Below, one piece after another: positions 37,625-60,941 of a DNA stretch of 64,000 bases (position 1 is its first letter; each line of letters opens with the position of its first letter). The notes beneath the pieces were generated by a model that ran no database searches, was not told where the DNA came from, and saw nothing but the letters and a program-made list of their open reading frames with translations. A program made the translations under genes and the position numbers. The stretch covers positions 5,291-69,290 of the forward strand of contig JABGVU010000099.1 of assembly GCA_018645865.1 (NCBI GenBank), read 5' to 3'. The DNA comes from Flavobacteriales bacterium (GTDB taxonomy: Bacteria > Bacteroidota > Bacteroidia > Flavobacteriales > BACL11).

Positions 37625-37657
37625 TCATCATTAATTACTTGAAAAACATAAAATAAT

Positions 37658-39370: not shown

Positions 39371-39376
39371 ATAATT

Positions 39377-40276: not shown

Positions 40277-40300
40277 ACGCAATAAATAATACATTACTAG

Positions 40301-40321
40301 AAGCCCTAATGGGGCTTTTTT
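40301..40321 (+). terminator. Rho-independent terminator ending the porP-gldKLMN operon
   Basis: The stem aagccc / gggctt is 6 bp and GC-rich with a loop of taatg. A run of T residues follows immediately. Confidence 0.7.
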
Positions 40322-40406
40322 AATTTGAACAAAGAATAGCAATTTTCACCATTTTAAATCAAGAATTTATAATCTTGTAACAGGGAAATTTTTAAATAAA
40401 TAAGAA

Positions 40407-41246
40407 ATGACAGAAGAATTAAATCTAAATGAATTATTTTCTAATCTTGTAAAATTTATTGCAAGAAATAGTAGATTGCTTTTTGTTTTTATGGGAGCTG
40501 GTATTCTTAGTGTTATTGCATATCAGAAATTTAAAACTCCTTATTATGAAACAAAAGCAATTTGTATGTCAGGTATTTCTGAATACGAAAGACAAGAACA
40601 GATTGAGGATTTAAGCCAAAGAACAGCAATTGATTTGATTAATCATTTGCAAATTAATATTGAAAATAAAGATTATTCTGCCTTAGTAAATTCATTAGGG
40701 TTAGAGTTAGAAGTTGTTTCGAGCTTAAAAAGTATTGAAGCTGAACAATTATATCAACAGGACATGAATGAGAAGTTTTATGCACTCAATAAATTTGAAA
40801 TTTCATTATTAACTTTTGATGAAAAGCACATTAACCAATTACAAGAAGGTCTTATTTATTATTTTACAAACAACATTTTTATTAAGCAATATCACAATAG
40901 TTATTTAGCTTCTAATATTGAAATTATTAATAATATCAATGATGAGATAGAAATGTTAAATAACATTAGAATTGTTGGTGCTAAAAACAGTTTAGATGTA
41001 AGTTCTGTAAATATAGTTAGTGGTAAAGAGAGTAGCGTTGTTAGTAATCAAATTATTTTACTTAGTCAACTTAGAGAAAACATAAAAACTAAACAGGCTT
41101 TATTAAAACCATTAACATTTGTACAGAATTTTGCTAAAGTAAATCAGAAAGAAGATGATATTTTAATCTTAGGGGTTTTAGGCGCTATTTTATCTTTTAT
41201 TTTAGGTTTGTTTGTCGCTTTAGTTAAAGAAGTAAAAACTAATTAA
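40407..41246 (+). CDS. Wzz-like polysaccharide chain-length determinant (PCP-1 topology)
   Basis: It has TM1 near residue 25-40, a long coiled-coil-like periplasmic region and TM2 at the C-terminus (ILILGVLGAILSFILGLFVALV). The call rests on topology and context only. Confidence 0.5.
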   Translation: MTEELNLNELFSNLVKFIARNSRLLFVFMGAGILSVIAYQKFKTPYYETKAICMSGISEYERQEQIEDLSQRTAIDLINHLQINIENKDYSALVNSLGLELEVVSSLKSIEAEQLYQQDMNEKFYALNKFEISLLTFDEKHINQLQEGLIYYFTNNIFIKQYHNSYLASNIEIINNINDEIEMLNNIRIVGAKNSLDVSSVNIVSGKESSVVSNQIILLSQLRENIKTKQALLKPLTFVQNFAKVNQKEDDILILGVLGAILSFILGLFVALVKEVKTN

Positions 41247-41247
41247 T

Positions 41248-41493
41248 ATGAAAGCAGGAATTATAGGCTTAGGATATGTTGCCTTAGTTGCTGCTGCTTG
41301 TTTTACTTTAATGGACAATGATGTAGATCATGGAAAAATAGATAAATTAAAATTGGGTGTTATCCCAGTTTATGAGCCCGGATTATCAACTTTAGTAAAA
41401 GAAAATTTATTTATTGATGGTAGAAATCAGTTTAGAACAGATTTTATTGAAAGTAAAGGGTTCAAATATGTGCAGATAGGCGTTAAAGAATAG
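41248..41493 (+). pseudogene. ugd: Relic of UDP-glucose/GDP-mannose 6-dehydrogenase: N-terminal Rossmann segment fused in frame to the extreme C-terminus
   Basis: MKAGIIGLGYVALV...KIDKLKLGVIPVYEPGL matches the family N-terminus, and FIDGRNQF...GFKYVQIGV matches the family C-terminus. About 350 aa of catalytic core are missing. The glycine motif GYVGL has also changed to GYVAL. Confidence 0.65.
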
Positions 41494-41498
41494 ATTAT

Positions 41499-42791
41499 AT
41501 GTCTATCAAAAGCATATTTTCATTAAAGTCTGTTACAGATTTTCTTTATATGTTTTTCTCAACCCTAGTTAAAAAAAGCCTTGGTTTTTTAAGGGAAATT
41601 ATACTAGCATTCTTTTTTGGTTCTTCAATTATATATGCAAATTATTTACTTCTTAAAACTGTTACTGATTTTTTCTCACAATTTACATTAGGCAATGCTT
41701 TACAAGCAAATCTTATGCCAAAATTTGCAAAATTGTATAGAAGAGAAGTCTCAGTAGACCTCTCAAATGTATTTGATTTCTCAAAATATTTCTCATTTAA
41801 ATTATTTCTGTTAAGTCAAATTATTCAAATCCCTTTAATGTTTTATATTAATCCTAAAGAAATAGGGTTATATCTTGTGTTATCAGTTTTATTAGGTGTT
41901 GTGATGAGTGTCAATTTCTTTAATTCAATCTTTTTAACCATTCTACAGGCAAAAGGGAGATTTAAACAGCACTCAGTTGCTACAACGTTTAATCTTTCTA
42001 TTTCAACTTTGTTACTTTATCCTTTTATATTACTTTTTAAGATTATACATGAGGCATTTGGTATTATAGGTGTTGTTTTAAGCAGATTAAGTGGAGTAAT
42101 AGCCTTGGCCTTAATTTATGTAAAACCGTTACTTGCTGAGAAAGGAGATGTTCGAGCAAGTTTATCGCTTAGTGATTTTAATTTCTCAATAATGATATTA
42201 GGGAATTTCGCAAATATTATCATGCTTTTGAGCAGATTTGTTGCGGGTGCTGATGGAAGTGAGAATATTGCATTCTACACTTACGCAATAGTATTCTTAA
42301 ATATTTTTCTTACAGCTGTTGTAATGAATATTAATACCTTGGTTATAAAAATAATTTCTGTCAAAAGAGATTATAAAATAATTTTACTCTCTGCATTAAT
42401 TTCTACCATTATAGGAGGGGTGTTTATTCTTGTTATTTCTTTGTTTAGTATTGAGATTATCTCTTTTACTTTTGAAAGAGGTGCTTTTACAGCTAGCGAT
42501 ACATTAATAACATCTAGCTATATAAAAGATATAAGTTGGAGTTTTATCTTTATATTTATTTCCTCAGCATTATTTCAACCGTATTTCACTTTACCTCAAT
42601 CTTATATTAAGAGAACAAGTAAATATTTAGCTAAACCATTTATTATTTCTGTTTTATTGCTACTGGGTTATTTTTATCTAAATAATCAGGGAGTAAGGCT
42701 TAATTCACTAGTTATGATTTATGTCCTTGCTTTTATTTCCTTTCTAATATCGATAATTGCTTTTATAAAATATTATAGATATGAAAATTAA
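41499..42791 (+). CDS. MurJ/MviN-like (MOP superfamily) oligosaccharide flippase, cassette A
   Basis: The N-terminus LGFLREIILAFFFGSS resembles the MurJ LGFVRDxxxAxxFG motif. It is a polytopic protein of 430 aa. Confidence 0.65.
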   Translation: MSIKSIFSLKSVTDFLYMFFSTLVKKSLGFLREIILAFFFGSSIIYANYLLLKTVTDFFSQFTLGNALQANLMPKFAKLYRREVSVDLSNVFDFSKYFSFKLFLLSQIIQIPLMFYINPKEIGLYLVLSVLLGVVMSVNFFNSIFLTILQAKGRFKQHSVATTFNLSISTLLLYPFILLFKIIHEAFGIIGVVLSRLSGVIALALIYVKPLLAEKGDVRASLSLSDFNFSIMILGNFANIIMLLSRFVAGADGSENIAFYTYAIVFLNIFLTAVVMNINTLVIKIISVKRDYKIILLSALISTIIGGVFILVISLFSIEIISFTFERGAFTASDTLITSSYIKDISWSFIFIFISSALFQPYFTLPQSYIKRTSKYLAKPFIISVLLLLGYFYLNNQGVRLNSLVMIYVLAFISFLISIIAFIKYYRYEN

Positions 42792-43968
42792 AAATATTTT
42801 TTCATGGATATATATATTGTTAGCTTGTGCAATGTTGGCAATAGGAAGGTTGTACGATGAAAGATTAGAGTTTCTTGGAATAAATCTATCGATAATTTTA
42901 AGTGTCTCTTTTTTACTGGTATCTATTCCTTTGCTTTTGTCAATTAAAAGAGTTAAACATTTTAATACCAAACGGTTATTCTATTATTTTTTGTCGATAA
43001 TAATAATCTTTCCACCAGTTTTATGCTTGTATTTTGATTATGATGATTTTGGATTTGAGAAATATTTTAATTTTATATTCATTGTTATTCCTCTTGTTAT
43101 TATTGTTATTGAAACATTTAAATATAATGATGTAAGAGTTTTTTTTAAGATTCTTTTAGGCTTTATTATTGCACTTTCTTTAATTGGTTTATTTGTTGTT
43201 TCAACTTCTTCTGATAGATTAAGCGTGTTAGGAGGTGGCCCAATTGTATTTGCTAGATGGATGAATATTGGGCTGATTATTTTATTTTTCATAAAGCCAA
43301 GCAGAATAAATAAGAAGAATATATTACTTATGTTATTTCTCTTAGTTCTTTCATTAGCAGCTGGTAGTAAAGGGCCTGTTTTATCTTTAGTAATTACCTT
43401 GGTAGTTTTTTTCTTTCTTAATTTCCAGAAGATATTTCTGCGAGTATTATTTTTTTCCTGTCTAATTGGATCGATTGTCTTCTTTTCAGGTATTAATACA
43501 TCAATATTAGGTATTGGTAAAACGGAAAGATTAGTAACAAAAGGTAATACATCTATAGATGCAAGGATGGTATTTGTTTCTCGCTCTGTTGATTTAATAT
43601 TACATTATCCGTTAGGTGTTGGACTAGGTAATTGGCAGGTTTATGCAAACAAAATAAAACCAACTCATTTATTAAAACATCAATATCCTCATAATTTAGT
43701 TTTAGAGATTTTTGCAGAATTAGGAATTATTTCAGGGATTCTATTTTTAATTCTACTTCTAAAAATCTTGTTTTATAATTATAAAAAGATGTATTTGAAT
43801 AAAAACAATGAACACTCCTTTTATCCTCTATTATTTTACTTGCAATTGTATTTAATGAGTAATTCATTTTTTAGTGGAAGTTTAAATGATTCTAGATTAC
43901 TTTTTGTAGTTATGGCTATGAGTTTAATTGAAACTTCATTGATATTAAAAGTAAAAAAGAATGTCTAA
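42781..43968 (+). CDS. O-antigen polymerase/ligase-family membrane protein (Wzy-like), cassette A
   Basis: It is a polytopic protein with a Wzy_C-like block, QYPHNLVLEIFAELGIISG. Confidence 0.65.
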   Translation: MKIKNIFSWIYILLACAMLAIGRLYDERLEFLGINLSIILSVSFLLVSIPLLLSIKRVKHFNTKRLFYYFLSIIIIFPPVLCLYFDYDDFGFEKYFNFIFIVIPLVIIVIETFKYNDVRVFFKILLGFIIALSLIGLFVVSTSSDRLSVLGGGPIVFARWMNIGLIILFFIKPSRINKKNILLMLFLLVLSLAAGSKGPVLSLVITLVVFFFLNFQKIFLRVLFFSCLIGSIVFFSGINTSILGIGKTERLVTKGNTSIDARMVFVSRSVDLILHYPLGVGLGNWQVYANKIKPTHLLKHQYPHNLVLEIFAELGIISGILFLILLLKILFYNYKKMYLNKNNEHSFYPLLFYLQLYLMSNSFFSGSLNDSRLLFVVMAMSLIETSLILKVKKNV

Positions 43969-44773
43969 TCAATGGAGAAAATATCAAGGAGTATTAGTTT
44001 CTGCAAAAGCGCCACATCAGGAGATTTTCACGCAGGGCCTTAATTCAGAAATAAAAAAGAATAATGCTTTTTTTGCAAGATGGATAACCAATTTTGATTG
44101 TAAAAAAGAATTAGATTTTTGGTATTTGATTCAAGATAAAAAGATGGAGATAAATGATTATAGTTCTAACACTAGAAATCAGATTAGAAAAGGTTTAAAA
44201 AATTTTGAGATTAGAAAGATAACTCTTGATAAAATGATTGAGAGTGCATACGTCATTTATAAAACAGTATTCCAGTTATATAATACTGCAAATAAGATTA
44301 AAAGTTTACAAGAATTTAATGATGATTTACTTCCCGCTTTTGATTATTGGGGAGTTTATAGAAACAATATGTTAGTAGGTTTTGCTCAAAATAGAGTGTT
44401 TGATGATTGTTGCGATTATTCAACTATTAAGATCTTACCAATTTATGCTAAGGAATATCCTTTTTACGCTTTATTTTATACTATGAATAATTATTATTTA
44501 GCAGAGCAGAAATTAAGATATGTAACTGATGGAACAAAAAGTATTTCTCATCAAACAAATATTCAGGAGTTCTTAGTCAAAAAATTTAAATTTAGAAAAG
44601 CTTATTGTTATTTGCATATTAAATATAACCCTTTTTTTGGTTTAATGGTAAGTTGTTTATTTCCTTTTCGAAAAATATTGTCAGTTTTTCATTTTTCTTT
44701 TATTAGAAACATAAATTCAATATTGTTGCAAGAGAAAATTAGAAGAAATTGTCAAAAAGAATTATTATGTTAA
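43961..44773 (+). CDS. Hypothetical protein, possibly a FemAB/GNAT-like acyl- or aminoacyl-transferase
   Basis: It is a soluble 270-aa ORF in an operon, overlapping its neighbour through ATGTCTAA. The resemblance to FemAB-like GNAT proteins (SSNTRNQIRKGLKNFEI block) is weak. The functional call is tentative. Confidence 0.35.
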   Translation: MSNQWRKYQGVLVSAKAPHQEIFTQGLNSEIKKNNAFFARWITNFDCKKELDFWYLIQDKKMEINDYSSNTRNQIRKGLKNFEIRKITLDKMIESAYVIYKTVFQLYNTANKIKSLQEFNDDLLPAFDYWGVYRNNMLVGFAQNRVFDDCCDYSTIKILPIYAKEYPFYALFYTMNNYYLAEQKLRYVTDGTKSISHQTNIQEFLVKKFKFRKAYCYLHIKYNPFFGLMVSCLFPFRKILSVFHFSFIRNINSILLQEKIRRNCQKELLC

Positions 44774-45555
44774 TAATCTGTAATGGTACTTTTAAATCTG
44801 GTTCTTCGTGGTTGCACGCAATTTTGTTAGAGATATTTAAAATTAAAAATATCCAAATTGATAGTATTCCTATAAAGTATAATCCAAATATTAAATCTCC
44901 AACTAGAATTTTAGAAGATAATCTTTCTAATTTTTTAAAAAATGAAGATTTTAAAAAGTTTAATTACATTACTAAAGCTCATTATTTTAGTAATAAAATA
45001 ATGCTTGAAAAATACTCAGATGATGTTAGATTTATATTTATAAATAGAGATGTCAAAGACGCAATAGTATCTCATTTTCATCATTTCAATAATTACAGAA
45101 AAAAAGATTTAAGTTTTAATATTTATTTTAAATTTATTGGTGTATTTAAAGCTTATGAAATAAGCTTGTTTAATTCTAGGTGTAAGAAAAATTTTGATTC
45201 AAGTTTGTTTTTTTCTTTTGAAATGTTAAAATCTGATTTCATCGATTCAATAAAGAAATTATGTTTGATTATAGGTGTTTCTGAAATTTCTATATCTGAA
45301 ATTTTGAAGATTAAAGAAAATACTTCATTAAGTAAATTGAAAACTATAGCATTAGAGGGGGGAAATAATTATTATCCGGAGTTAGGTAGTGGTAGTCATA
45401 AATTATTTAGAAAAGGCAATGTAGGAGATTGGAAAAAATATTTTATAGATAATGACTTAAAATTAATAAATAGAGTTATTCAGTTAGCCCCACCAGTGTA
45501 TGTTAAAATTGGATATTTTTTTATGTTTACTTTGAGAAGAAAATTTGGTTTATAA
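44767..45555 (+). CDS. PAPS-dependent sulfotransferase (Sulfotransfer_1 / SULT-like)
   Basis: It has the 5'-PSB loop TFKSGSSWL, the 3'-PB motif FINRDVKDAIVSHFHH and the C-terminal RKGNVGDWKKYF. Confidence 0.8.
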   Translation: MLIICNGTFKSGSSWLHAILLEIFKIKNIQIDSIPIKYNPNIKSPTRILEDNLSNFLKNEDFKKFNYITKAHYFSNKIMLEKYSDDVRFIFINRDVKDAIVSHFHHFNNYRKKDLSFNIYFKFIGVFKAYEISLFNSRCKKNFDSSLFFSFEMLKSDFIDSIKKLCLIIGVSEISISEILKIKENTSLSKLKTIALEGGNNYYPELGSGSHKLFRKGNVGDWKKYFIDNDLKLINRVIQLAPPVYVKIGYFFMFTLRRKFGL

Positions 45556-46304
45556 TGAATGATTTGATTTCCATAATAACACCTTATTATAATTCCTCAA
45601 AGTTCATTGAAGAGTGTGTTAATTCTGTTTTACTACAATCTTATTCTAACTGGGAATTATTAATAGTTGATGATTGTTCAAATGATAACTCTAAAGAATT
45701 GCTTCTTAATCTAGAAAAAAAGGATGAGCGAATTAAAATAACATTCTTGGATAATAATATTGGAGCTGCAAATGCTAGAAATATTGCGATTCAAAATGCT
45801 ACAGGAAAGTACATTGCATTCTTGGATTCAGACGATTTATGGGAGTCACAGAAATTAGATAAACAAATCTCATTTATGGTGCAAAATGACATTGCATTTT
45901 CATATACATCATACCAATCTATTTCAGAAGATAGATCAGATATTATAGATGTTATTAACGCTCCTGATAAGATGACTTATCATGATTATCTTAAAAACAC
46001 AATTATTGGTTGTTTAACGGTTGTTATTGATAGAGAAAAGATTGGGGATTTTGAAATGCCAAACATTAGTTCATCTCATGATATGGCTTTATGGTTGCTA
46101 ATAATGAAAAGAGGGTTTGATGCATATGGATTAAATGAAAATCTGGCAAAATATAGGATTGTTTCAACTTCTAATACTGCTAATAAATGGCGTGCAGCAA
46201 AGGATGTTTGGAAAGTCTATCGTCAATTTGAAAAGCTATCTTTTTTATATAGTGTTTGGTGCTTTTTAAATTATGCTTTTAATGCAATTATAAAACGAAT
46301 CTAA
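45555..46304 (+). CDS. Family 2 glycosyltransferase, cassette A
   Basis: It contains ISIITPYYNSSKFIEECVNSVLLQSY, LLIVDDCSND and a DSDD (DxD) motif. Confidence 0.85.
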   Translation: MNDLISIITPYYNSSKFIEECVNSVLLQSYSNWELLIVDDCSNDNSKELLLNLEKKDERIKITFLDNNIGAANARNIAIQNATGKYIAFLDSDDLWESQKLDKQISFMVQNDIAFSYTSYQSISEDRSDIIDVINAPDKMTYHDYLKNTIIGCLTVVIDREKIGDFEMPNISSSHDMALWLLIMKRGFDAYGLNENLAKYRIVSTSNTANKWRAAKDVWKVYRQFEKLSFLYSVWCFLNYAFNAIIKRI

Positions 46305-46888
46305 TGAAAAGATTATTTGATTTTAGCACATCATTAATTGGATTAATAGTTTTATTTCCTATTTTTATTATTGTATCTGTTTTGATTAAGATATATTCTG
46401 AAGGTCCTGTTTTTTTTGTTCAGAAAAGAATTGGGAGGAATGGTAAAATATTTCAAATGATAAAATTTAGATCTATGACTGTAATTCAAAGTTCTAATAG
46501 TACTATTTCTGTTAAAGGTGATATCAGAATTACAAAAATAGGTGCTTTTTTAAGAAAGTTCAAATTGGATGAACTTCCTGAGTTATGGAATGTATTAAAA
46601 GGTGATATGAGTCTTGTTGGACCTAGGCCTGATGTTTGTGGTTATGCAGATAATTTAATAGGAGAAGATAGAAAAATACTTGAGTTACGTCCTGGTATTA
46701 CTGGAGTTGCTAGTTTAAAATATTATGATGAAGAAAAAGTTTTAGCGACACAGGATAATCCACTTAAATTTAATGATGAAGTAATTTATCCTGATAAAGT
46801 AAGATTAAATCTTGATTATTACTATAATAATAACCTTTGGATTGACATTAAAATTATATTTGCCACTATATTTAGAGTGAATTATTGA
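46304..46888 (+). CDS. Small monotopic phosphoglycosyl transferase (PglC/WcfS-like initiating sugar transferase)
   Basis: It is 194 aa with a single N-terminal re-entrant helix. It carries KFRSM, DELPELWNVLKGDMSLVGPRP and RPGITG. Confidence 0.9.
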   Translation: MKRLFDFSTSLIGLIVLFPIFIIVSVLIKIYSEGPVFFVQKRIGRNGKIFQMIKFRSMTVIQSSNSTISVKGDIRITKIGAFLRKFKLDELPELWNVLKGDMSLVGPRPDVCGYADNLIGEDRKILELRPGITGVASLKYYDEEKVLATQDNPLKFNDEVIYPDKVRLNLDYYYNNNLWIDIKIIFATIFRVNY

Positions 46889-46889
46889 T

Positions 46890-48023
46890 TTGACTAATAA
46901 GAAGAAAATATGGTTGTCCTCTCCTCATATGGGGGGTAATGAGCTGAAGCATGTGCAAAATGCTTTTGAAGCAAATTGGATCGCTCCAGTTGGTCCTCAT
47001 ATTTCTAATTTTGAAAAAAAACTATCGACTCTTTCTAATGGTTTTGAGGTGGCTGCACTGAGTAGTGGTACGGCTTCCTTGCATTTAGCATTAATTTTAT
47101 TAGGTGTAAAAAAAAGAGATAGAGTATTATGTTCCTCATTTACTTTTTCAGCATCAGCAAACCCAATTGCATATGTAGGAGCAAATCCTGTCTTTATTGA
47201 TAGTGATATTGATAGTTGGAACATGTGTCCAATTTTATTAGAAAAAGCAATTGAGGATTGTATTTTGGATAATGAAAAGCCAAAAGCTATAATGTTAGTT
47301 CATCTTTTTGGGATGCCTGCTAAAATGGATGAAATAATGAAAATTGCTAATAAGTATGATATTCCTGTTATTGAAGATGCTGCTGAGGCTCTTGGATCAA
47401 CTTTTAAAAATAAACCACTAGGTACCTTCGGATCATTTGGTGTTTATTCATTTAATGGCAATAAAATTATCACAACTTCCTGCGGTGGGGCTTTAATTTG
47501 TAAAGATAAATATTTGGTTGAAAAAGCAAAATTCTTAGCCAGTCAGGCTCGTGATAATAAACCTCATTATGAACATTCTGAAATAGGCTATAATTATAGA
47601 ATGAGTAATGTTTGTGCCGCTATAGGTCTTGGGCAATTAGAGGTTTTAGAAGAAAGAATATTACAAAAGAGAGCAATTAAATTATTTTATAAAGATCAAT
47701 TGTCTTCTATTAAAGAAATTAGTTTTTTGAATGAAAATGAGGATAGTTATTCTAATTTCTGGCTGACCACTATTCTTTTGTCAGAAAATTCAACAATAGA
47801 TAGAGAACAATTGCGTTTACATCTGGAAAAAAATAATATTGAAAGTAGACCGCTTTGGAAGCCAATGCATTTACAGCCTGTTTTTAAAGAATGTAAATCT
47901 TATGTGAATGGTGTTTCGGAAGATTTATTTAATAGAGGATTGTGCTTACCTTCAGGAACCAATATCTCAGTAGCAGATTTGAAAAGAGTTGTGAGTAAAA
48001 TAAAAGAATTATATGAAGCTTAG
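46890..48023 (+). CDS. DegT/DnrJ/EryC1/StrS-family PLP aminotransferase (PglE/WcfR-like sugar 4-aminotransferase)
   Basis: It uses a TTG start. IWLSSPHMGGNE is at the N-terminus, and the PLP-lysine context is FNGNKIITTSCGGAL. Confidence 0.9.
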   Translation: MTNKKKIWLSSPHMGGNELKHVQNAFEANWIAPVGPHISNFEKKLSTLSNGFEVAALSSGTASLHLALILLGVKKRDRVLCSSFTFSASANPIAYVGANPVFIDSDIDSWNMCPILLEKAIEDCILDNEKPKAIMLVHLFGMPAKMDEIMKIANKYDIPVIEDAAEALGSTFKNKPLGTFGSFGVYSFNGNKIITTSCGGALICKDKYLVEKAKFLASQARDNKPHYEHSEIGYNYRMSNVCAAIGLGQLEVLEERILQKRAIKLFYKDQLSSIKEISFLNENEDSYSNFWLTTILLSENSTIDREQLRLHLEKNNIESRPLWKPMHLQPVFKECKSYVNGVSEDLFNRGLCLPSGTNISVADLKRVVSKIKELYEA

Positions 48024-49881: not shown

Positions 49882-49900
49882 TAGTTGCTAAATTCGCATC

Positions 49901-50869: not shown

Positions 50870-50870
50870 G

Positions 50871-50915
50871 ATGATACATGTAACTAAAACATATTTACCT
50901 GATAAAGAAAAATAA
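50871..50915 (+). pseudogene. 14-codon stub resembling the N-terminus of a DegT/WecE-type sugar aminotransferase
   Basis: MIHVTKTYLPDKEK* matches the Bacteroidota DegT-family N-terminal pattern M-I-x-V-T-x-x-x-L-P-x-x-E-E. It lies in a 68-nt gap directly upstream of the WecF-like gene. The match is short, so the call is tentative. Confidence 0.4.
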
Positions 50916-50937
50916 ATAATTTGCTGAAACTTTATAT

Positions 50938-52044: not shown

Positions 52045-52050
52045 ATCACA

Positions 52051-53319
52051 ATGAATATTAATAAACAAGTTATTATAGGAGTAAAGTGGACAACACTTGG
52101 AACTTTATCTGTTACTCTCTCGAATGTTTTGAAAGTAAGTATTTTGGCTAGATTTTTATCAAAGGATGATTTTGGTGTATTTGCGATTGTTGTTTTTTTC
52201 TTAGGATTTTTCAAAATGTTGAGTGAAATGGGACTTACCACTGCTATTCTTCACAAACAGGATATTAAAAAAAATGAATATGCTAGTTTGTATTGGTTTA
52301 ATATAATACTTTGTATTTGTTTATACTTATTACTATTTTTAATTACCCCAATTATTTCAGGATTTTATAATGAACCTGAATTAGATTTTTTGATTAAAGT
52401 ACTTGGTTTGAGTATAATAATTAATTCAATTGGCTTACAATTCAGAACTATAGAAACAAAGAACCTATCTTTTAAATATATAAACATCTTTGATATAATT
52501 GCGTCAGTAATTTCTTTGTCATTTGCTATCTGGTTAGCTGTTAATGGTTACGGTATTTTGGCACTTGTTTATTCGGTAGTTCTGGAGTATGCTATTTCAA
52601 ATTTCTTACTTTTTTTCTTAGGATTAAGAAATCATGGAGTAAGGGTTTATTTTAGATTTAAAGATTTAAAACCATTTTTAAGAATTGGTTTGTTTCAAGT
52701 AGGAGGTCAATCAGCTAATTTTTTTAATAGAAATCTTGATATTCTTATAATTGGGAAATTCTTTTCACAAGAGGTTTTAGGGGGATATAGTTTGGCTAAA
52801 CAATTAGTGTTTAGGCCTACACAAGTAATTAACCCTATCTTAGCAAAGGTTGCGGCACCTACACTTGCTAAGTTTCAGAATAATCTAGAACTATTAAAAG
52901 AAAATTATTTAAAACTTGTAAATGTTGTTTCTTCAGTAAATTTTGTCTCTTATTTTATATTAATAGTTTTTGCTCCTATTATAGTTGAGATATTCTATGG
53001 AGGAGGATATAGTAGTATTGTTTTATTAGTTAGGATTCTTTGTGTTTATATGGTATTTAGGGCTATATTAAATCCGATTGGAAGCTTGGTGGTTGCGACA
53101 GGAAGAACAGATATTCAGTTTATATGGAATATTGTATTGTTAATTTTAATGCCAATTGTTGTTTATGCTGGTTCTATGTTTGGTATTGTAGAGGTTACTA
53201 TTGCATTAACTGTAACAATGATTCTATTATTTCTACCAAGTTGGTATTTCTTAGTTCGAAAGATGTCTGGAGCAACACTAAAAGAATATGTTATCTCAAT
53301 AATAAGATTATATAATTAA
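52051..53319 (+). CDS. wzx: Wzx-type (MOP superfamily) polysaccharide flippase, cassette B
   Basis: It is a 12-TM-type protein of 422 aa. The N-terminus (GVKWTTLGTLSVTLSNVLKVSILARFLSKDDFG) is typical of LPS/EPS flippases. Confidence 0.8.
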   Translation: MNINKQVIIGVKWTTLGTLSVTLSNVLKVSILARFLSKDDFGVFAIVVFFLGFFKMLSEMGLTTAILHKQDIKKNEYASLYWFNIILCICLYLLLFLITPIISGFYNEPELDFLIKVLGLSIIINSIGLQFRTIETKNLSFKYINIFDIIASVISLSFAIWLAVNGYGILALVYSVVLEYAISNFLLFFLGLRNHGVRVYFRFKDLKPFLRIGLFQVGGQSANFFNRNLDILIIGKFFSQEVLGGYSLAKQLVFRPTQVINPILAKVAAPTLAKFQNNLELLKENYLKLVNVVSSVNFVSYFILIVFAPIIVEIFYGGGYSSIVLLVRILCVYMVFRAILNPIGSLVVATGRTDIQFIWNIVLLILMPIVVYAGSMFGIVEVTIALTVTMILLFLPSWYFLVRKMSGATLKEYVISIIRLYN

Positions 53320-53329
53320 TATAAGGATT

Positions 53330-54499
53330 ATGAATTTATCTTCAGTAAATAAAAATTTACTTTCAAATATTACTATTGAAAAAGGATTTGTATTTACATT
53401 CTTAGTAATTGTGTTCTCTGTTGATTTTCATTTTTTATGGTTGTTGTATGATTTCTTAGCTTTGTTTGCTTTATGCTTCTTTTCAAAACATGTAAATGCT
53501 GTGCTAGGCTCTACATTACTTTTGGTGTTATCTTTTTTTATTATAGCAACTGTCATTTCTGGTTTCCATATAATTAGCATTTTATCAATTTGGGATAATA
53601 TTAAGCATGTCTTTGTTTTATTTATGTTATTGCTTCTTGTTGAAAGACACATTGAAGGCCGGATATTGAAATTTGCAAATAGTTTTGGTTTTATAATCGG
53701 CAGTATTTTTATTATACAATCAATATTAGTATTTTATCAATCGTTTAATGGTTATTTTAAAGATGATATTTCAGGAACTTTTGGAATAGCTAGCGGGCAT
53801 ACTTTTGCATATTACTGTTTGTTATATCTTTCTTACTTGTTTTATGTTAAGAGATCATATATCTTAACTTTTTGTGTCTTTGTGCTATCATTAGTAATGA
53901 ATTATTTTGCAGAGAATATGGGTTATTATCCTTTAGTGATACTATTATTAAGCTATAATTGGTGGACACTTAAAGGACTGAAATTTATGATATTTTATGG
54001 CATAGCATTATTATTAGGAATTATGATTCTAGATAATATTTTAGGAGGCGTGTTGATTCAGCCAGTTTTATATAGATTCTCAGAATTCTTTTTAGTAGGG
54101 AGTATAGATCTAGATAATCTTAATCAAAGTAGAGGATATATGACAGCATTGGCATTATACCTGGGTGGTTGGTGGGGTGCTGGTCCAGGTTGTTATTCTG
54201 AGATTTATTCAATCATAGGATGGAAATCTCTTGCTGGAATTCAACTAAATATCTCGTCGGTTACAAATCTATTAGCAGAGTATGGGATTGTAGGTGTTTT
54301 GTTATGGTTGTTCTTATATTTCTCTTTTATAAAACGATTCTTCAAGAACAGGAAAGATTTTATTTTTATCAGTATGTTATTTACTTTTAGTTTATTATAT
54401 AATAAAGTTTTGAATGATGAAAGAGTTATCTTTTTGTTAATATTTCTATTTATGTTTGTTAAAATTCATATTGACAGAAAAGCATTAAAAAATGATTAA
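53330..54499 (+). CDS. Wzy-like polymerase / O-antigen-ligase-family membrane protein, cassette B
   Basis: It is a polytopic protein with a large loop followed by an LLAEYGIVGVLLW block. The call rests mostly on context. Confidence 0.5.
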   Translation: MNLSSVNKNLLSNITIEKGFVFTFLVIVFSVDFHFLWLLYDFLALFALCFFSKHVNAVLGSTLLLVLSFFIIATVISGFHIISILSIWDNIKHVFVLFMLLLLVERHIEGRILKFANSFGFIIGSIFIIQSILVFYQSFNGYFKDDISGTFGIASGHTFAYYCLLYLSYLFYVKRSYILTFCVFVLSLVMNYFAENMGYYPLVILLLSYNWWTLKGLKFMIFYGIALLLGIMILDNILGGVLIQPVLYRFSEFFLVGSIDLDNLNQSRGYMTALALYLGGWWGAGPGCYSEIYSIIGWKSLAGIQLNISSVTNLLAEYGIVGVLLWLFLYFSFIKRFFKNRKDFIFISMLFTFSLLYNKVLNDERVIFLLIFLFMFVKIHIDRKALKND

Positions 54500-55397
54500 T
54501 TATTCTATTATCGTACCTCACAAGGATTCGGTGAAGTATCTTTTAAGATTATTGGATAGTATCCCAAATAATGATGATATTCAAGTTATTATTATAGATG
54601 ACAATAGTGATGTTGCGGTTGTTAAACAACTTCAAGATATTGAATTAAATATTAATATTGAGATTGTTTTTTGTGATGTATCTAAAGGTGCCGGTGGAGC
54701 TAGAAATATTGGGATACAGAAAGCAAAAGGAAAGTGGGTTATTTTTGCTGATTCTGATGATTACTTTACAATACACCTTGAAAATTTATTAATTGAGAAT
54801 GTAGATTCAGGTGCGGATATTATATATTTTAATACTGATAGTCGAGACGAAAACGGAAAACAAACATATAGACATTTACGGTATTCAAAGTTAGTTTGTG
54901 ATTTTCTAAATGATAATAAAAAAGAAAATGCTCTAAGGTACTATTTTACGTCTCCTTGGGCAAAAATTATAAAAAGAGATTTAATTCTCAAGAACAATAT
55001 TAAATTTGATGAAATAGTTGCTTCAAATGATGTAATTTTTTCATTGAAAACAGCTTACTTTGCTAAAAAGATTAAGGCGTATAAAGATATTTTATATGTA
55101 ATTTCATTAACAAAAGGAAGTGTCACTCAAATTATTAGTAAAGCGCATTTTGACTCAAAATTTAATACAGCTTTGAATGCAAATAAATTCTTATGCTCTA
55201 TTGGTATGAGAAGATATCAGCAATCAATTTTGTATTTCTTAGGAAGATCATATAAGTTTGGATTTCAATATATCATTTATGTTCTTTTAATGCTAATTAA
55301 AAATAGATCAAATATTCTTATTGGAATGAGCAAATTAATGAATTTAAATAAAGCTCTTAGAGAAAGAGAAAATACAGATTATATTACTAAAAGATAA
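54492..55397 (+). CDS. Family 2 glycosyltransferase, cassette B
   Basis: It contains YSIIVPHKDS, VIIIDDNSD, GAGGARNIG and the DxD motif FADSDDYF. Confidence 0.85.
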   Translation: MINYSIIVPHKDSVKYLLRLLDSIPNNDDIQVIIIDDNSDVAVVKQLQDIELNINIEIVFCDVSKGAGGARNIGIQKAKGKWVIFADSDDYFTIHLENLLIENVDSGADIIYFNTDSRDENGKQTYRHLRYSKLVCDFLNDNKKENALRYYFTSPWAKIIKRDLILKNNIKFDEIVASNDVIFSLKTAYFAKKIKAYKDILYVISLTKGSVTQIISKAHFDSKFNTALNANKFLCSIGMRRYQQSILYFLGRSYKFGFQYIIYVLLMLIKNRSNILIGMSKLMNLNKALRERENTDYITKR

Positions 55398-55398
55398 A

Positions 55399-55842
55399 AT
55401 GAAAAAGATCTTAGCAATTTCATCTTCAGGTGGTCATTGGACTCAAATGCAAAGAATTACATCATCTTTTTCTGGCAATGAAGTTGTATATGTTTCTACT
55501 TTAAAAGGATATGTTAAAGAAGTATCTACTTGCAAATATTATCAAGTGAAAGATGCTTCAGCTTGGAATAAATTAAATTTGATTGTTCTTTTTTTTCAAT
55601 TAATCAAAATTATTATGAATGAAAGGCCTGATATAGTGATTTCAACTGGAGCTGCACCTGGTTTATTTGCAATAATAATATCACGATTTGTAGGCGCAAA
55701 AACTATTTGGTTGGATAGTATTGCAAACTATGAACAAATATCATTGAGCGGTAAGTTAGCAAAATATTTTACACATTTACATTTAACGCAATGGGAACAT
55801 TTAACAAATCAGAAGACACAATTTTCAGGAAAAGTTTTGTAA
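55399..55842 (+). CDS. Alg14-like membrane-anchoring subunit of a split glycosyltransferase (PssD/Cps14F-like)
   Basis: It has the N-terminus MKKILAISSSGGHWTQM and the block PDIVISTGAAPG, and is 147 aa. Confidence 0.8.
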   Translation: MKKILAISSSGGHWTQMQRITSSFSGNEVVYVSTLKGYVKEVSTCKYYQVKDASAWNKLNLIVLFFQLIKIIMNERPDIVISTGAAPGLFAIIISRFVGAKTIWLDSIANYEQISLSGKLAKYFTHLHLTQWEHLTNQKTQFSGKVL

Positions 55843-56315
55843 TATTTGTTGTTACAGGAACGCAGGCTCCTTTTGATAGGATGCTCTCAATTATTGATAA
55901 ATGGGCTGTCAATCAGGATACATATTCCATTATAGCTCAAACAGCTAATTCAGAAATAAATTTTAAGAATATGACTTGTTTTGATTATTTAGAGCCAGAT
56001 GTTTTTAATGAATACTTTAATAATGCAGATGTTATTATAGGTCATGCTGGTATGGGAACTATAATTAAAGCTTTAGAAAATAAAAAAAAGTTAGTAGTTT
56101 TCCCAAGGCTAGTAAAATATAATGAACATAGGAATGATCATCAGCATCATACTGCAATTGGGTTTGAGAAGCTGGGGTTAATAAATGTAGCTTATAATGA
56201 AAAAGATTTGTTTAGGTATTTAAATAACATAATTGAGATACCTGTTAAGCGTAAAATTAATCAAAATGCGGAAAAACAATTATTGAAAAAAATATCTAAC
56301 TTTATAAATAAATAA
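55791..56315 (+). CDS. Alg13-like catalytic subunit of a split glycosyltransferase (PssE/Cps14G-like, Glyco_tran_28_C)
   Basis: It contains IFVVTGTQAPFDRM and IIGHAGMGTI. The only canonical start is the ATG at 55791, which gives a 52-nt out-of-frame overlap with the Alg14-like gene. Confidence 0.8.
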   Translation: MGTFNKSEDTIFRKSFVIFVVTGTQAPFDRMLSIIDKWAVNQDTYSIIAQTANSEINFKNMTCFDYLEPDVFNEYFNNADVIIGHAGMGTIIKALENKKKLVVFPRLVKYNEHRNDHQHHTAIGFEKLGLINVAYNEKDLFRYLNNIIEIPVKRKINQNAEKQLLKKISNFINK

Positions 56316-56334
56316 TTTCTTAGGCTTACCTTAA

Positions 56335-56475
56335 ATTTTAGACATTAGAACTGGAGGAGATATTTCAAAACCCGATGGGATTATTCGGAAATTAACTAAT
56401 GTAAGCATGCTTCATAGCTTAGTATGGAAACATACAGTAGCTCTTAATAAAGGTGTTAAAAAAATTTACATTTGA
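56335..56475 (+). pseudogene. fcl: C-terminal relic of GDP-L-fucose synthase (Fcl/WcaG)
   Basis: The hand translation is ILDIRTGGDISKPDGIIRKLTNVSMLHSLVWKHTVALNKGVKKIYI*. It aligns by eye to the Fcl C-terminus (D-x-SKPDG-x-PRKL-x-DVS-x-L-x-x-LGW...). An in-frame TAA lies at 56332 and there is no start codon, so only the last 40-45 codons remain. Confidence 0.6.
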
Positions 56476-56501
56476 CACTTATTATAGCTTGAGTTAATTC
56501 T

Positions 56502-56509
56502 TACCTTTG
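56502..56509 (+). promoter_or_regulatory. Candidate Bacteroidota -7 promoter box (TAnnTTTG) upstream of the WbaP-like gene
   Basis: TACCTTTG matches TAnnTTTG exactly and ends 6 nt before the ATG at 56516. I found no well-spaced -33 TTG element, and a start here would imply a near-leaderless mRNA. Confidence 0.25.
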
Positions 56510-56515
56510 TATTGC

Positions 56516-57901
56516 ATGAGAGGATATTCACAGTATTTCTGGTTAATTCACTTTATTGGTGATTTATTTATTGTCAATTTTTCATTTTTACTTGCCTTTT
56601 ATTTAAAGTTTGATACTTTAATGTTCTCTGATAAATACAAATTTTTGTTTATCATTTTTAATGGAATTTGGGTATTGGTTGCTTTGTTTCTTGAGTTGTA
56701 TAAGCTGAAGCGATTAAGAAGGTTAGATAGGGTTTTATTTAATTTATTTAAAGCTTTTGTTTTTAATGCTTTTGTCATTAGTGCTATTTTGTTCTCACTT
56801 AAAGCGTCTGAGTTTTCAAGAGAGCATTTATATACAACTTATGTCTTGCTTTTTGCTCTAATAATGTTGTGGCGTTATTCGGCAATTAAATTAATTTATC
56901 TTTATAGAAAATCTGGATTTAATTACAAAAGAGTAATCATTATTGGTGGTAATGAGGTTGCCAATCAATTATATACTTATTTTATGTCAGATGATGTCTT
57001 AGGAATTAAAGTGAAGGGTGTTTTTTCTGATAGTGATATTTATTTTGATGTTAAAGATAGTATTCGTAGAGGTGGATTGGATGATTTAGAATCATTTGCT
57101 TTGGATAATACCATTGATGAAATCTATTACTCCATGCCATTAACTTATACTCAAAGGATTAGAGGTTTAGTTGATTTTTGTGATCAAAATATGATTCGCT
57201 TTAAAATAGTTCCTGATTTTAGGGGCTTTATTTTTAAGCGTGTAAATATTGATTTTTATGATGATGTGCCTATAGTCACATTACGCGCTGAACCGCTTAC
57301 GGATATTACAAATCGGTTTTTAAAACGAGTATTTGATATCATGTTTTCATCTTTAGTTATTGTATTTGTGTTGACTTGGTTATATCCTATTATGGCTATT
57401 TTAATTAAGTTGTCATCAAAAGGGCCGGTGTTATTTAAACAGGCGCGCTCTGGAGTAGGTAATATGGAATTTATGTGTTATAAGTTTCGTTCTATGACTC
57501 AAAGTGTTGAAGCAGATACCAAACAAGCATGCAAAGGAGATACTCGTATTACCAAAATAGGTGCTTTTCTTAGGAAATCATCTTTAGATGAATTCCCTCA
57601 ATTTATTAATGTGTTTATGGGCGATATGTCTATAGTGGGTCCAAGACCTCACATGTTGTTGCATACTGAGGAATATTCTGCTTTGATTAATAAGTATATG
57701 GTTCGTCAGTTAGTTAAGCCTGGTATTACAGGGGCTGCTCAGATAAAAGGCTATAGAGGAGAGACTAAGGAATTAAAAGATATGGAGGGACGTGTTCGTT
57801 TGGATGTTTGGTATATTGAAAATTGGTCTTTATCGGTTGATATCAATATTATTTTTTATACAATTTGGAACATATTCAAGGGGGATGAAAAAGCTTTATA
57901 A
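56516..57901 (+). CDS. Polytopic undecaprenyl-phosphate hexose-1-phosphate transferase (WbaP/WcaJ-like initiating PGT)
   Basis: It has 4-5 N-terminal TM helices and a central Rossmann-like domain (RVIIIGGNEVA). The C-terminal Bac_transf domain carries KFRSM, DEFPQFINVFMGDMSIVGPRP and KPGITG. Confidence 0.9.
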   Translation: MRGYSQYFWLIHFIGDLFIVNFSFLLAFYLKFDTLMFSDKYKFLFIIFNGIWVLVALFLELYKLKRLRRLDRVLFNLFKAFVFNAFVISAILFSLKASEFSREHLYTTYVLLFALIMLWRYSAIKLIYLYRKSGFNYKRVIIIGGNEVANQLYTYFMSDDVLGIKVKGVFSDSDIYFDVKDSIRRGGLDDLESFALDNTIDEIYYSMPLTYTQRIRGLVDFCDQNMIRFKIVPDFRGFIFKRVNIDFYDDVPIVTLRAEPLTDITNRFLKRVFDIMFSSLVIVFVLTWLYPIMAILIKLSSKGPVLFKQARSGVGNMEFMCYKFRSMTQSVEADTKQACKGDTRITKIGAFLRKSSLDEFPQFINVFMGDMSIVGPRPHMLLHTEEYSALINKYMVRQLVKPGITGAAQIKGYRGETKELKDMEGRVRLDVWYIENWSLSVDINIIFYTIWNIFKGDEKAL

Positions 57902-59327
57902 ATATTACTTAATAGTATTTTTCCCAATTTTTTCAAGTGGACAGATATCGACATTTCATTCAGGATTTAATGATATTTTTTTTAAAACTGATTCCAGACC
58001 ATGGTTGAAGTTTTATAACACTGATTCAGATACTTTAGTTGCTCCTAATACTGATACAATTCAATATTTTAGTTTAGATTCAAAATTGTTTAGCATAGGG
58101 TCAGCTAATAAATCAGATTATGCATGTACATATTTATTTTCTGCAAGCTTGTTTTCTAATTTCAAGAATAAAATAACTTTCACTTCCCATTTTGATTACT
58201 TGGCAGGAAATCATAATAAATTAATTAAAGAATTCCAAGATTCATTATTTATTTTTCCTGGATTTGGGAGAGAGAAAAGTAGATTACAATATAATCTAAA
58301 ATATTTTGTTAATAAATTCATAACTGTTGATTTTGGAAAAGGAAAACATTTTATAGGAAATGGGTATCGTTCTCTGATGTTATCTGCTGAACATTCTCCT
58401 TATCCGTATTTGAAGTTATCTACTGAATTTGGCAGAGTTAAATATTATAATTTATACACTACTTTTTTAGATATACAAGATCCAAATCAGAATAGAAAAA
58501 AGCATTCTTCAATTCATTTTTTAGATTTTAGTTTAACAGAAAATATAAATATTGGTATTTTCGAGGGTGTACTCTGGCAAGCAAAAAATGAAAATTATAA
58601 TAGAGGATATGATCTAGAGTATTTGAATCCAATTATTTTTTATCGCCCAGTAGAGTTTTCAAAACACTCTCCTGATAATGTGTTGATTGGTGGAAATTTT
58701 AATGCAAAAATTAAGACAACAACTTTTTATGGGCAAGTTTTATTAGATGATTTGAATATATCTAGACAAAAAGATAGGGACGAAGGATATAGTGAAGGGT
58801 TTTTTCAGAATAAGTTTGCTTATCAATTAGGGCTTAAATCGTCTTTTAAAAAAATAAATCTTTTATTGGAGTATAATCAAGCACAACCCTATACTTATGC
58901 GCATAAAGAACCGATGCAATCTTATACACATTTTAACCAAGCTTTAGCACATCCATTGGGTGCAAATTTTAAAGAGTTACTTATGCTTGCAAATTACAGT
59001 AAACAGAAATGGAAGTTTAGCATTAAATTAACGCATGCTAAGGTTGGTTTGGATTCTCTGTATTCGCATTATGGCCAAAATATATTTGTTTCTGATTTTG
59101 AGGCTCAAGGTGTTGGTAGTCAATATTCATATGGAAATTTTAATGGACAAGGCGTTTCAACTATAATTAACACTTTGCATACTGAAATTCTCTATTCGTT
59201 TAAATGGTTTGATCTTTTTGGCTCGGTATTTTATAAAAATAAAAAGTCTGATCTACTGGATCAGACTTTATTATGGTATTCAGTTGGGATAAGAACCTTT
59301 CCATTCTCAACTTTTAAGGACTATTAA
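57885..59327 (+). CDS. Predicted outer-membrane beta-barrel protein, Wzi/RemB-like (capsule-assembly family), tentative
   Basis: The ATG at 57885 gives the signal peptide MKKLYKYYLIVFFPIFSSGQ. The protein is rich in aromatic/Gly beta-strand patterns and sits at the distal end of the glycan locus. The family assignment is from memory of similar Flavobacteriia proteins. Confidence 0.5.
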   Translation: MKKLYKYYLIVFFPIFSSGQISTFHSGFNDIFFKTDSRPWLKFYNTDSDTLVAPNTDTIQYFSLDSKLFSIGSANKSDYACTYLFSASLFSNFKNKITFTSHFDYLAGNHNKLIKEFQDSLFIFPGFGREKSRLQYNLKYFVNKFITVDFGKGKHFIGNGYRSLMLSAEHSPYPYLKLSTEFGRVKYYNLYTTFLDIQDPNQNRKKHSSIHFLDFSLTENINIGIFEGVLWQAKNENYNRGYDLEYLNPIIFYRPVEFSKHSPDNVLIGGNFNAKIKTTTFYGQVLLDDLNISRQKDRDEGYSEGFFQNKFAYQLGLKSSFKKINLLLEYNQAQPYTYAHKEPMQSYTHFNQALAHPLGANFKELLMLANYSKQKWKFSIKLTHAKVGLDSLYSHYGQNIFVSDFEAQGVGSQYSYGNFNGQGVSTIINTLHTEILYSFKWFDLFGSVFYKNKKSDLLDQTLLWYSVGIRTFPFSTFKDY

Positions 59328-60901: not shown

Positions 60902-60941
60902 TGTTTTATAGTTTTCTATTTTGATTGCAAAGTATGAAAAA

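Follow-up and report, generated by a model that had tools for sequence, protein, structure and literature searches.

Tandem, probably independent Wzx/Wzy-dependent glycan assembly lines with conserved initiation modules and exchangeable cores in uncultured marine Flavobacteriales

Enterobacteria pair a conserved pathway for their common antigen (wec; WzxE, WzyE and WzzE) with a variable O-antigen pathway. In Campylobacter (PglC/PglE/PglF) and in the PSA system of Bacteroides fragilis (WcfR/WcfS), a small phosphoglycosyl transferase (PGT) is combined with a DegT aminotransferase and a 4,6-dehydratase for a 4-amino-4,6-dideoxy-N-acetylhexosamine (HexNAc). In Porphyromonas gingivalis, the lipopolysaccharide (LPS) genes are scattered, and O-LPS and A-LPS share Wzx, Wzy and WbaP. 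Hypervariable O-chain clusters, described as replacement flexible genomic islands, are found in streamlined marine bacteria, for example in the Pelagibacterales (PMC11898729). Here, a glycan locus of an uncultured marine Flavobacteriales bacterium was analysed within a 64,000-nucleotide stretch of DNA (assembly GCA_018645865.1, contig JABGVU010000099.1, positions 5,291 to 69,290), which is referred to as the window. The locus is encoded on the plus strand and was divided into line A (40407-50869) and line B (50938-59327). These probably represent two independent Wzx/Wzy-dependent assembly lines in a layout ancestral to the clade, each composed of a conserved initiation and precursor module and an exchangeable core. 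Fixed-site hypervariable O-chain clusters and conserved/variable Wzx/Wzy pairs are already familiar, and the locus is of this ordinary kind. Judging from gene comparisons and structural models, what appears to be new is the tandem clade-wide arrangement, the combination of fixed initiators with swappable cores, and the putative use of a MurJ-fold protein as a unit-specific flippase.

Like the Pelagibacterales islands, the locus occupies a fixed position and has conserved borders around an interior that differs between close relatives (PMC11898729). It departs from them in that only the flippase/polymerase/transferase cores are replaced, two of which are arranged in tandem around a conserved precursor module. 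Within-population variation was not seen among the sampled contigs of the source population, all of which carry the same cassette type. The enterobacterial pairing is resembled by the occurrence of one clade-conserved and one variable Wzx/Wzy line and by a WecF-like glycosyltransferase of family 56 (GT56). In contrast to enterobacteria, however, the two lines are adjacent and possess PglC-type and WcaJ-type initiators instead of a shared WecA; the conserved line is served by a MurJ-fold flippase, and its core is itself exchangeable.

A preliminary description of the window, made from its letters, had listed a duplicate set of initiating PGTs, MOP flippases and Wzy/O-antigen-ligase-like proteins together with a single Wzz-like and a single Wzi/RemB-like protein. 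All eight open reading frames (ORFs) exist at the coordinates given below, and the three duplicated functions were confirmed. The initiator of line A (46304-46888) is a small PglC-type PGT (Bac_transf, 2.9e-60) with one predicted hydrophobic segment, whose closest solved relative is PglC (8g1n, 5.8e-25). The initiator of line B (56516-57901, start 56507/56516) is a polytopic WcaJ-type PGT, which scored 460 bits on TIGR03023 WcaJ and thereby exceeded the 411-bit cutoff. The line B flippase (52051-53319) is a Wzx (Polysacc_synt_3, 6.5e-72) that reached 362 bits on the MOP flippase model NF007773 (cutoff 273 bits), and the line A flippase (41499-42791) was recognised by its modelled fold. The probable line A polymerase (42781-43968) is a polytopic Wzy_C-family protein (1.3e-16) with ~11 hydrophobic segments, and the probable line B polymerase (53330-54499) is a 389-aa polytopic protein with a predicted WaaL/Wzy fold. 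Ratios of nonsynonymous to synonymous substitution (dN/dS) of 0.13-0.28 were obtained for all genes with an available diverged ortholog, among them both polymerase candidates, the MurJ-like flippase, both PGTs and the Wzi-like gene. The genes tested are under purifying selection, and the proposal of two separate Wzx/Wzy-type lines was upheld.

To place the two lines in their clade, GTDB species genomes were scanned with the gpsA-like gene at the A/B boundary as the anchor. As a result, 17 relevant loci were identified, all of them from metagenome-assembled genomes (MAGs) of uncultured Flavobacteriales. The order of line A after gldKLMN was the same in every locus reaching it, the 17 GTDB loci included, and the flippases in this position were 35-72% identical to that of the window. 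Downstream of gldN, this shared order starts with an optional ugd, the gene of a 279-aa protein, ugd, the flippase gene and a Wzy_C or EpsG-type gene, and it continues with the gene of a 270-aa protein, optional modifiers, a family 2 glycosyltransferase (GT2), the small PGT, the DegT, PglF-like and gpsA-like genes. The wcaJ, Wzi-like and TPR genes recur 5-10 kb past the gpsA-like gene. Because the order of line A is shared and the wcaJ/Wzi-like end recurs, the two-line layout appears to be ancestral to the clade and no peculiarity of the window genome. The preliminary description had regarded an identical gene order in distant relatives as evidence against assembly from exchanged cassettes and had expected gldN and the TPR/SprB genes to be the conserved flanks of a variable interior. 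On both counts the comparison went the other way, since the order of line A is identical across relatives with such divergent flippases and the variable part is flanked by the gpsA-like gene and wcaJ.

Within this variable region, no homologs of the GT56-like, Wzx, 389-aa, PssD and PssE genes of the window were found in the 17 GTDB loci. In the related loci (labelled L), wcaJ is 75-89% identical and always marks the distal limit of the variable region, and the Wzi-like gene beside it is conserved in L014, L020, L023, L024 and L034. Exactly two polytopic membrane proteins are encoded between the gpsA-like gene and wcaJ in 8/8 spanning loci; in L019 and L020, on which Pfam was run, they are one Wzx and one Wzy_C protein. 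The genes of the variable region are shuffled between species in modules, as observed in eight loci. These modules include a TagF-like gene (Pfam, L020) with a WecG-like gene, homologs of which occur in four species, a NeuB type in L007/L022 and L014, and an epimerase pair beside wcaJ in four loci. A 431-aa protein of L014 was rejected as the true polymerase of that locus, as it is not polytopic, and the odd end of the MAG contig L001 was rejected as strain variation, being simply the end of the contig.

The exchange of cores became apparent from the comparison with the nearest sampled relative, a single contig of "Cryomorphaceae bacterium bin.103" (L051+L020). Nucleotide identity to this contig is 85.6% at 30501-40329 and 84.8% at 40386-41406, is reduced to weak patches at ~41750-45555, and resumes exactly at the GT2 start codon to remain at ~87.5-87.9% over 45555-50740. 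There is no similarity at 50740-56424, and 88.9% identity is found at 56424-61424. In each of the divergent intervals, genes of modifying enzymes accompany those of a flippase and a polymerase. The proteins of the first interval are 41% (flippase), 44% (polymerase) and 49% (270-aa protein) identical, and the sulfotransferase is absent from the relative; the flanking proteins and those from the line A GT2 to PglF are 81-95% identical, and the gpsA-like protein is 80% identical. The L051 flippase is an outlier with at most 43% identity to all others, while the PglF of L051 shares 85-87% identity with its counterparts in the window, L034 and L008. The first-core replacement is therefore most likely to have occurred in the sister lineage and not in the ancestry of the window, judged from these protein identities. 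The first core of the window looks collinear with L008 and L034 (nucleotide identity 82-84%).

The second interval extends from the 3' end of the gpsA-like gene (~50740) to a position ~90 nt upstream of wcaJ. It has the form of a replacement island, with a non-homologous interior between collinear borders of 87-89% identity, and appears to have been replaced in the lineage of the window. Just inside its right edge, at 56359-56469, an epimerase/dehydratase gene has left a non-coding relic, namely its final ~37 codons. By tblastn, it shows 54-73% identity to residues 318-354 of a 359-362-aa gene (E 1e-11 to 4e-16), which is intact directly 5' of wcaJ in L014, L019, L023 and L024. This remnant is a scar of the cassette replacement. 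The unit of exchange is evidently the core of flippase, polymerase and modifiers, with the transferase and sugar-precursor genes of each line apparently inherited vertically. The earlier proposal that the locus had been assembled from at least two horizontally exchanged cassettes thus stands for the interior of line B (~50740-56424) and fails for whole lines, which are not the units exchanged, and for line A, the order of which is conserved. It was partly supported, for reasons other than those it gave.

The line A flippase belongs to the MOP superfamily and is, in its predicted fold, closest to MurJ of the MVF family. An AlphaFold model built with 24 homologs had a predicted local distance difference test score (pLDDT) of 85. 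In Foldseek, MurJ 6nc6 was the best match (TM-score 0.76), followed by MATE and WzxE, all with a probability of 1.0. Pfam MurJ (PF03023) was matched weakly by 3/24 relatives (best 2.3e-7). The window protein itself gave no match in Pfam (E<=10), NCBIfam (E<=0.01) or PDB sequence searches and did not match the curated MurJ models (PF03023 and the NCBIfam MurJ model, TIGR01695), and no solved MurJ was found by sequence when a profile of its family was run against PDB. Its homologs were found in marine metagenomes only, have a near-constant length (423 aa), and have in several cases been annotated by JGI as putative lipid II flippases. The protein might accordingly be regarded as the housekeeping lipid II flippase MurJ, which would leave line A without a flippase of its own and the locus with one true Wzx/Wzy line. 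The fold, the names and constant length of the relatives, and the lack of a canonical murJ within the 64-kb window all favour this view. It is nevertheless very improbable, because neither Pfam MurJ nor NCBIfam is matched by the protein even at relaxed thresholds, its stop codon lies within the first 11 nt of the polymerase gene, and it is 41% identical in the nearest relative compared with 85-95% for the neighbouring housekeeping proteins. Unlike MurJ, it lies within a glycan line to which it is coupled, and its divergence follows that of the polymerase and modifiers and not that of the genome; it therefore behaves as a substrate-specific flippase. A genuine MurJ, which the preliminary description had named as a possible objection to two lines, is thus not what the gene looks like.

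The two polymerase candidates share their fold with O-antigen ligases, and the fold alone cannot separate Wzy from WaaL. The line A protein matched TIGR04370 only at 2.7e-4, below the cutoff, and no solved relative was found by sequence. Pfam, NCBIfam and PDB sequence searches with the 389-aa line B protein gave no usable match, even at E<=10, and only 50 homologs were found among 5.8 billion proteins. Its model (pLDDT 76) has one meaningful structural match, the WaaL ligase 7tpg (TM-score 0.56, probability 1.0), all further matches having TM-scores of ~0.1. One of the two proteins could consequently be a WaaL ligase or an O-oligosaccharyltransferase, in which case the units of one line would be transferred unpolymerised or a polymerase would be shared. 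This is also suggested by the name of the Pfam family matched by 42781-43968, O-antigen ligase, and by the lack of any other ligase candidate in the window. A ligase, however, recognises a conserved acceptor and should itself be conserved, whereas the Wzy-fold proteins are swapped together with Wzx and transferases in eight regions. In the polymerase slot of line A, L007 carries a 333-aa gene with a weak EpsG match, and L019 and L024 carry 334-335-aa ORFs without similarity to Wzy_C. The line A Wzy_C protein is, moreover, only 44% identical in the nearest relative, compared with 85-95% for the flanks. The pattern of swapping is a better fit to polymerases, and a ligase at one of the two positions is considered unlikely. 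With polymerases as the preferred assignment, the 389-aa protein would occupy this role in line B, being the sole non-Wzx polytopic protein of the variable region both here and in L014.

A distant homolog of the 389-aa protein (43% identical) was also observed at 10305-17648 of L016, in a different, non-syntenic glycan cluster that adjoins a transposase fragment (rve_3), a true Wzz and a phage-type integrase. The 389-aa Wzy-fold family therefore also travels on mobile DNA.

The base composition of the locus was likewise examined, as its low guanine-plus-cytosine (GC) content had been taken as a sign of foreign DNA. The six hand counts made on 60-nt lines were exactly right, and in 1-kb windows the mean GC was 0.281 at 40001-59000 and 0.330 at 1-40000 (Mann-Whitney p=8.5e-8). 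No recovery follows on the right-hand side, where the values remain low (0.27-0.31) until the window ends. Recent import of the whole AT-rich interval as an island would agree with this highly significant drop of 5 points at 40.3 kb. GC at the codon positions was compared between genes outside the locus (31) and those of line A (10) and line B (8). The third position is slightly lower inside the locus (0.19-0.21 compared with 0.225, p=0.003), again in the direction expected of an import. Most of the drop, however, is located at the first position, from 0.443 to 0.350, and the second, from 0.326 to ~0.29, and the G+C content of four-fold sites hardly differs between the outside genes (0.176), line A (0.150) and line B (0.173). 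The proteins of the locus, the make-up of which is hydrophobic and AT-rich, contain more F, L, I and Y and fewer A, G and E. The two lines do not differ significantly in composition (p=0.57), and the dip recurs when the orthologous line A of three relatives is set against their own gldKLMN, with hardly any change at the third position. Because the drop is mainly at the first and second codon positions and is shared by relatives, it is no evidence of foreign origin. It is an old intrinsic trait of mostly membrane-bound, fast-evolving proteins and no marker of recent import. Line A, wcaJ and the Wzi-like gene are, in addition, syntenic and orthologous in 17 species with identities that follow the flanks, and the window ORFs scanned with Pfam showed no sign of an integrase, a tRNA gene or a transposase. 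Recent import of the entire interval is hence highly improbable, and the GC argument of the preliminary description did not hold, correct as its counts were.

The conserved module of line A begins with a TuaG-like GT2 glycosyltransferase (45555-46304; Glycos_transf_2, 8.6e-36), the first conserved gene after the first core, which scored 368 bits on NF047683 TuaG, just below the 400-bit cutoff. The small PGT is followed by a DegT-family sugar aminotransferase (46890-48023, contig-called start 46929; DegT_DnrJ_EryC1, 1.6e-97) that scored 399.5 bits on a LegC-family aminotransferase model, below the 420-bit cutoff. The next gene encodes a membrane-anchored sugar-nucleotide 4,6-dehydratase (48013-49881; 4.7e-117) with four N-terminal transmembrane segments, a member of the Polysacc_synt_2 family that includes PglF, WbpM and CapD. 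The adjacency of small PGT, aminotransferase and dehydratase is the feature shared with Campylobacter Pgl and B. fragilis PSA. In contrast to Campylobacter, a PglD-type acetyltransferase was not seen in line A of the window, and the unit is probably polymerised by Wzy and not transferred to protein. In L011, the small PGT and DegT of line A are separated by additional genes (15883-17516), which encode a formyltransferase and a PIG-L-family deacetylase, and this suggests a different N-substituent on the amino sugar.

Line A is closed by a divergent paralog of glycerol-3-phosphate dehydrogenase (gpsA-like, 322 aa; 49901-50869), which contains the Pfam GPD domains and remained under every NCBIfam GpsA cutoff (best 185 compared with 257). 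In L009, the corresponding protein is fused to a cytidylyltransferase domain (Pfam). The gpsA-like ORFs of L009, L020, L023, L024 and L034 are 452-454 aa long, the latter four being known by size alone, and the genes next to that of L020 (10001-11365) include a TagF-like glycerophosphotransferase gene (Pfam). The possibility that the gene is a housekeeping GpsA separating two unrelated loci was rejected on the basis of the sub-cutoff GpsA scores, the L009 fusion, the long ORFs and the TagF-like neighbour in L020.

The core of line A holds, besides flippase and polymerase, two putative modifying proteins. The conserved 270-aa protein (43961-44773) is specific to line A and has an ortholog in every relative (40-77% identity), with 51 invariant columns in the family; Pfam, NCBIfam and PDB gave no match, profile included. 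The sulfotransferase (44749-45555; Sulfotransfer_1, 3.4e-19; contig-called start 44767, 262 aa) is present in only some relatives, and its position inside a bacterial Wzy-type line would imply a sulfated surface glycan. Another sulfotransferase was observed in the variable region of L019 (12300-13187). Between the 279-aa protein gene and the flippase gene, an 81-aa ORF (41248-41493) is a relic of ugd (UDP-glucose 6-dehydrogenase) with an in-frame internal deletion. Compared with the intact Ugd of L007 (441 aa), it retains residues 1-73 and 412-439, and it matches the first ~70 positions of UDPG_MGDP_dh_N. An intact ugd occupies the same position in L007, L011, L019, L024 and L051. A shorter relic of 42 aa was observed in L008, and in L034 tblastn similarity only is present, in a 210-nt gap at the same place. 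Most sampled loci without ugd carry the sulfotransferase, as do some with ugd, so that the pattern is not strict.

The first gene of line A (40407-41246) encodes the 279-aa protein, a candidate chain-length regulator (PCP-1/Wzz-like) with two transmembrane segments around residues 24 and 252. It is conserved in the clade and follows the left flank (84% identity to L051). PF02706 was not matched, and no Pfam, NCBIfam or PDB match was obtained, even at E<=10 or with the family profile against PDB, but hhalign aligned the protein to the N-terminus of a true Wzz in a weak match (probability 62% over 52 columns). The earlier Wzz-like label is therefore plausible, though tentative, by topology and this profile match.

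Based on these assignments, the following route is proposed for line A. The PglF-like dehydratase and the DegT aminotransferase would make a UDP-4-amino-4,6-dideoxy-HexNAc, the amino sugar would be placed on undecaprenyl phosphate by the PglC-like transferase, and the lipid-linked sugar would be extended by the TuaG-like GT2. The unit may then be modified by the 270-aa protein and the sulfotransferase, which would probably sulfate it, carried by the MurJ-fold flippase across the inner membrane and polymerised by the Wzy_C protein, with the two-transmembrane 279-aa protein possibly setting the chain length.

Line B starts with a GT56-like (WecF-like) glycosyltransferase (50938-52044; Glyco_transf_56, 2.5e-10; NF002756, 3e-39, below cutoff) for which no homolog was found in the related loci. 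In the population contig L037, the equivalent gene (3949-5055) is split into 81-aa and 256-aa ORFs by a one-base change, a nonsense mutation that reflects a null allele in nature or else an error of sequencing. Downstream of the Wzx and 389-aa genes, a GT2 glycosyltransferase (54492-55397; Glycos_transf_2, 1.1e-23) is 83% identical to its counterpart in L014, with which it is shared along with the 389-aa gene. The two following genes encode a PssD/Cps14F-like (Alg14-like) subunit of a split glycosyltransferase (55399-55842; Alg14, 6e-10) and its PssE/Cps14G-like (Alg13-like) catalytic subunit (55791-56315; Glyco_tran_28_C, 1.5e-9). A polytopic hexose-1-phosphate transferase together with such a split Alg14/Alg13-like enzyme is likewise found in Streptococcus pneumoniae cps14 (Cps14E/F/G) and in Rhizobium Pss (PssD/E). 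Unlike in these systems, the PssD and PssE scores are just under the curated cutoffs here (NF041549, 89 bits for a cutoff of 110; NF041548, 115 bits for a cutoff of 120), and neither CpsA-D nor Wza/Wzc was found in the window.

The last gene of line B (57885-59327) encodes a candidate outer-membrane protein with a signal-peptide-like N-terminus and an aromatic C-terminal residue. An exhaustive search placed it in a family of 2355 representative clusters, and PF14052 Caps_assemb_Wzi was matched by 10/24 family members (best 3e-8). The protein itself had no Pfam, NCBIfam or PDB match, Pfam even at E<=10. The earlier call of a Wzi-like barrel accordingly holds at the level of a Wzi-related family; a literature search on RemB/Wzi in Flavobacterium johnsoniae found nothing bearing on its tentative "RemB-like" label. 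In the route proposed for line B, WcaJ would initiate with a hexose-1-phosphate, PssD/E, the GT2 and the GT56-like enzyme would extend the unit, Wzx would flip it, the 389-aa WaaL/Wzy-fold protein would polymerise it, and the Wzi-related protein may help to retain the polymer at the surface.

Several points weigh against this interpretation of two complete lines. Both glycan products are predicted from genes alone, and it is from these that we infer the sugar identities, the polymerase as opposed to ligase roles, the role in chain length and the fate as O-antigen, capsule or other glycan. Among the window ORFs scanned, no WaaL ligase (apart from the two Wzy-fold proteins), no Wza and no Wzc were found; the preliminary description had likewise seen no Wza/Wzc exporter, so that exporter genes of the group 1 capsule type were not found within these ORFs. 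The ligase-like fold of both polymerase candidates adds to this, as does the flippase assignment of 41499-42791, which relies on a predicted structure and on weak matches of relatives. The Wzz-like call is a weak one, made from topology and one weak profile match. The estimates of dN/dS cover genes with a diverged ortholog and thus leave out Wzx, the GT56-like gene and PssD/E. As ugd has decayed here, UDP-glucuronate must come from another source or the specificity must have changed if the TuaG-like GT2 needs this sugar. Finally, the gpsA-like gene of the window is stand-alone, without a cytidylyltransferase or TagF partner.

The surroundings of the locus raise the question of a connection with the secretion system of type IX (T9SS). 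Upstream there are housekeeping genes followed by porP/sprF-gldKLMN. A series of 12 co-directional ORFs (~9.1-23.8 kb) suggests, by order and sizes, a cell-division/cell-wall cluster. The minus strand downstream encodes a 525-aa protein that matches TPR weakly, as well as a SprB-repeat protein that carries a type IX sorting domain at its C-terminus. The minus-strand ORF at 60942-64000 (868 aa) is only the C-terminal part of this giant SprB-repeat/GEVED protein with its T9SS sorting domain, which is cut by the window end and is 2486 aa long on the identical contig L044.

Line A directly follows gldKLMN in every relative reaching that far, and the SprB-repeat protein lies on the other side of the locus. 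The line A glycan might thus anchor or decorate T9SS cargo or gliding adhesins in the manner of A-LPS in P. gingivalis, where T9SS cargo is reported to be tethered to an A-LPS made by Wzx/Wzy/WbaP-type genes (PMC7468200, PMC3684754, PMC13086638). P. gingivalis further resembles the present case as a member of the Bacteroidota with T9SS, two lipid-linked surface glycans and Wzx/Wzy-type genes (PMC3684754). It differs in that two full sets are found in tandem here. A terminator-like hairpin between gldN and line A (40299-40319, plus strand; 9-bp stem with four G-C pairs and a T-run), located directly 3' of gldN, argues against co-transcription and against simple read-through from gldKLMN into line A. 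In small, collinear genomes, adjacency may, moreover, reflect plain vertical inheritance, and no genes of the P. gingivalis Wbp/Vim pathway were identified here. A T9SS-related function of line A is therefore a doubtful proposition by analogy. Equally speculative is its extended form, in which line A would make the common anionic (sulfated or uronate-bearing) glycan of the clade, tethering or lubricating T9SS adhesins, with a dedicated MurJ-derived flippase family. If true, line A would correspond, in free-living marine bacteria, to the A-LPS anchor of P. gingivalis.

As a pair of independent lines with exchangeable cores, the locus illustrates how uncultured, abundant ocean bacteria could diversify their surface glycans, namely with fixed starters and precursors and with small cassettes exchanged between conserved recombination anchors. 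According to a common view, susceptibility to phages and grazers is influenced by surface glycans, and the flippase/polymerase/decorating cassettes are for this reason candidate strain-typing markers in metagenomes. Three protein families without a direct match to curated models are brought to attention, i.e., the Wzx-like flippase with a MurJ fold, the rare protein with a WaaL/Wzy fold and the conserved 270-aa protein. The locus also serves as a worked example that the GC dip of a polysaccharide locus can stem from protein composition and not from foreign origin.

Most genes of the locus overlap or are closely spaced. The larger gaps of ~130, 68 and 200 nt at 40.3, 50.9 and 56.4 kb suggest three transcription units, 40407-50869, 50938-56315 and 56516-59327. 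A scan for sigma-70 promoters was uninformative (130 sites compared with 127 expected from shuffles), as was a terminator scan (6 compared with 5.1 expected), in which only the hairpin after gldN was noteworthy. The source population is an uncultured marine Flavobacteriales; identical GldN, gpsA-like and Wzi-like proteins with their neighbours were found on several ocean-metagenome contigs and in the MAG GCA_018667435.1. The same two-line locus was yielded by several independent metagenomes, and the ATG starts assigned at 56516 and 57885 in the preliminary description coincide with the gene starts called on independent contigs.

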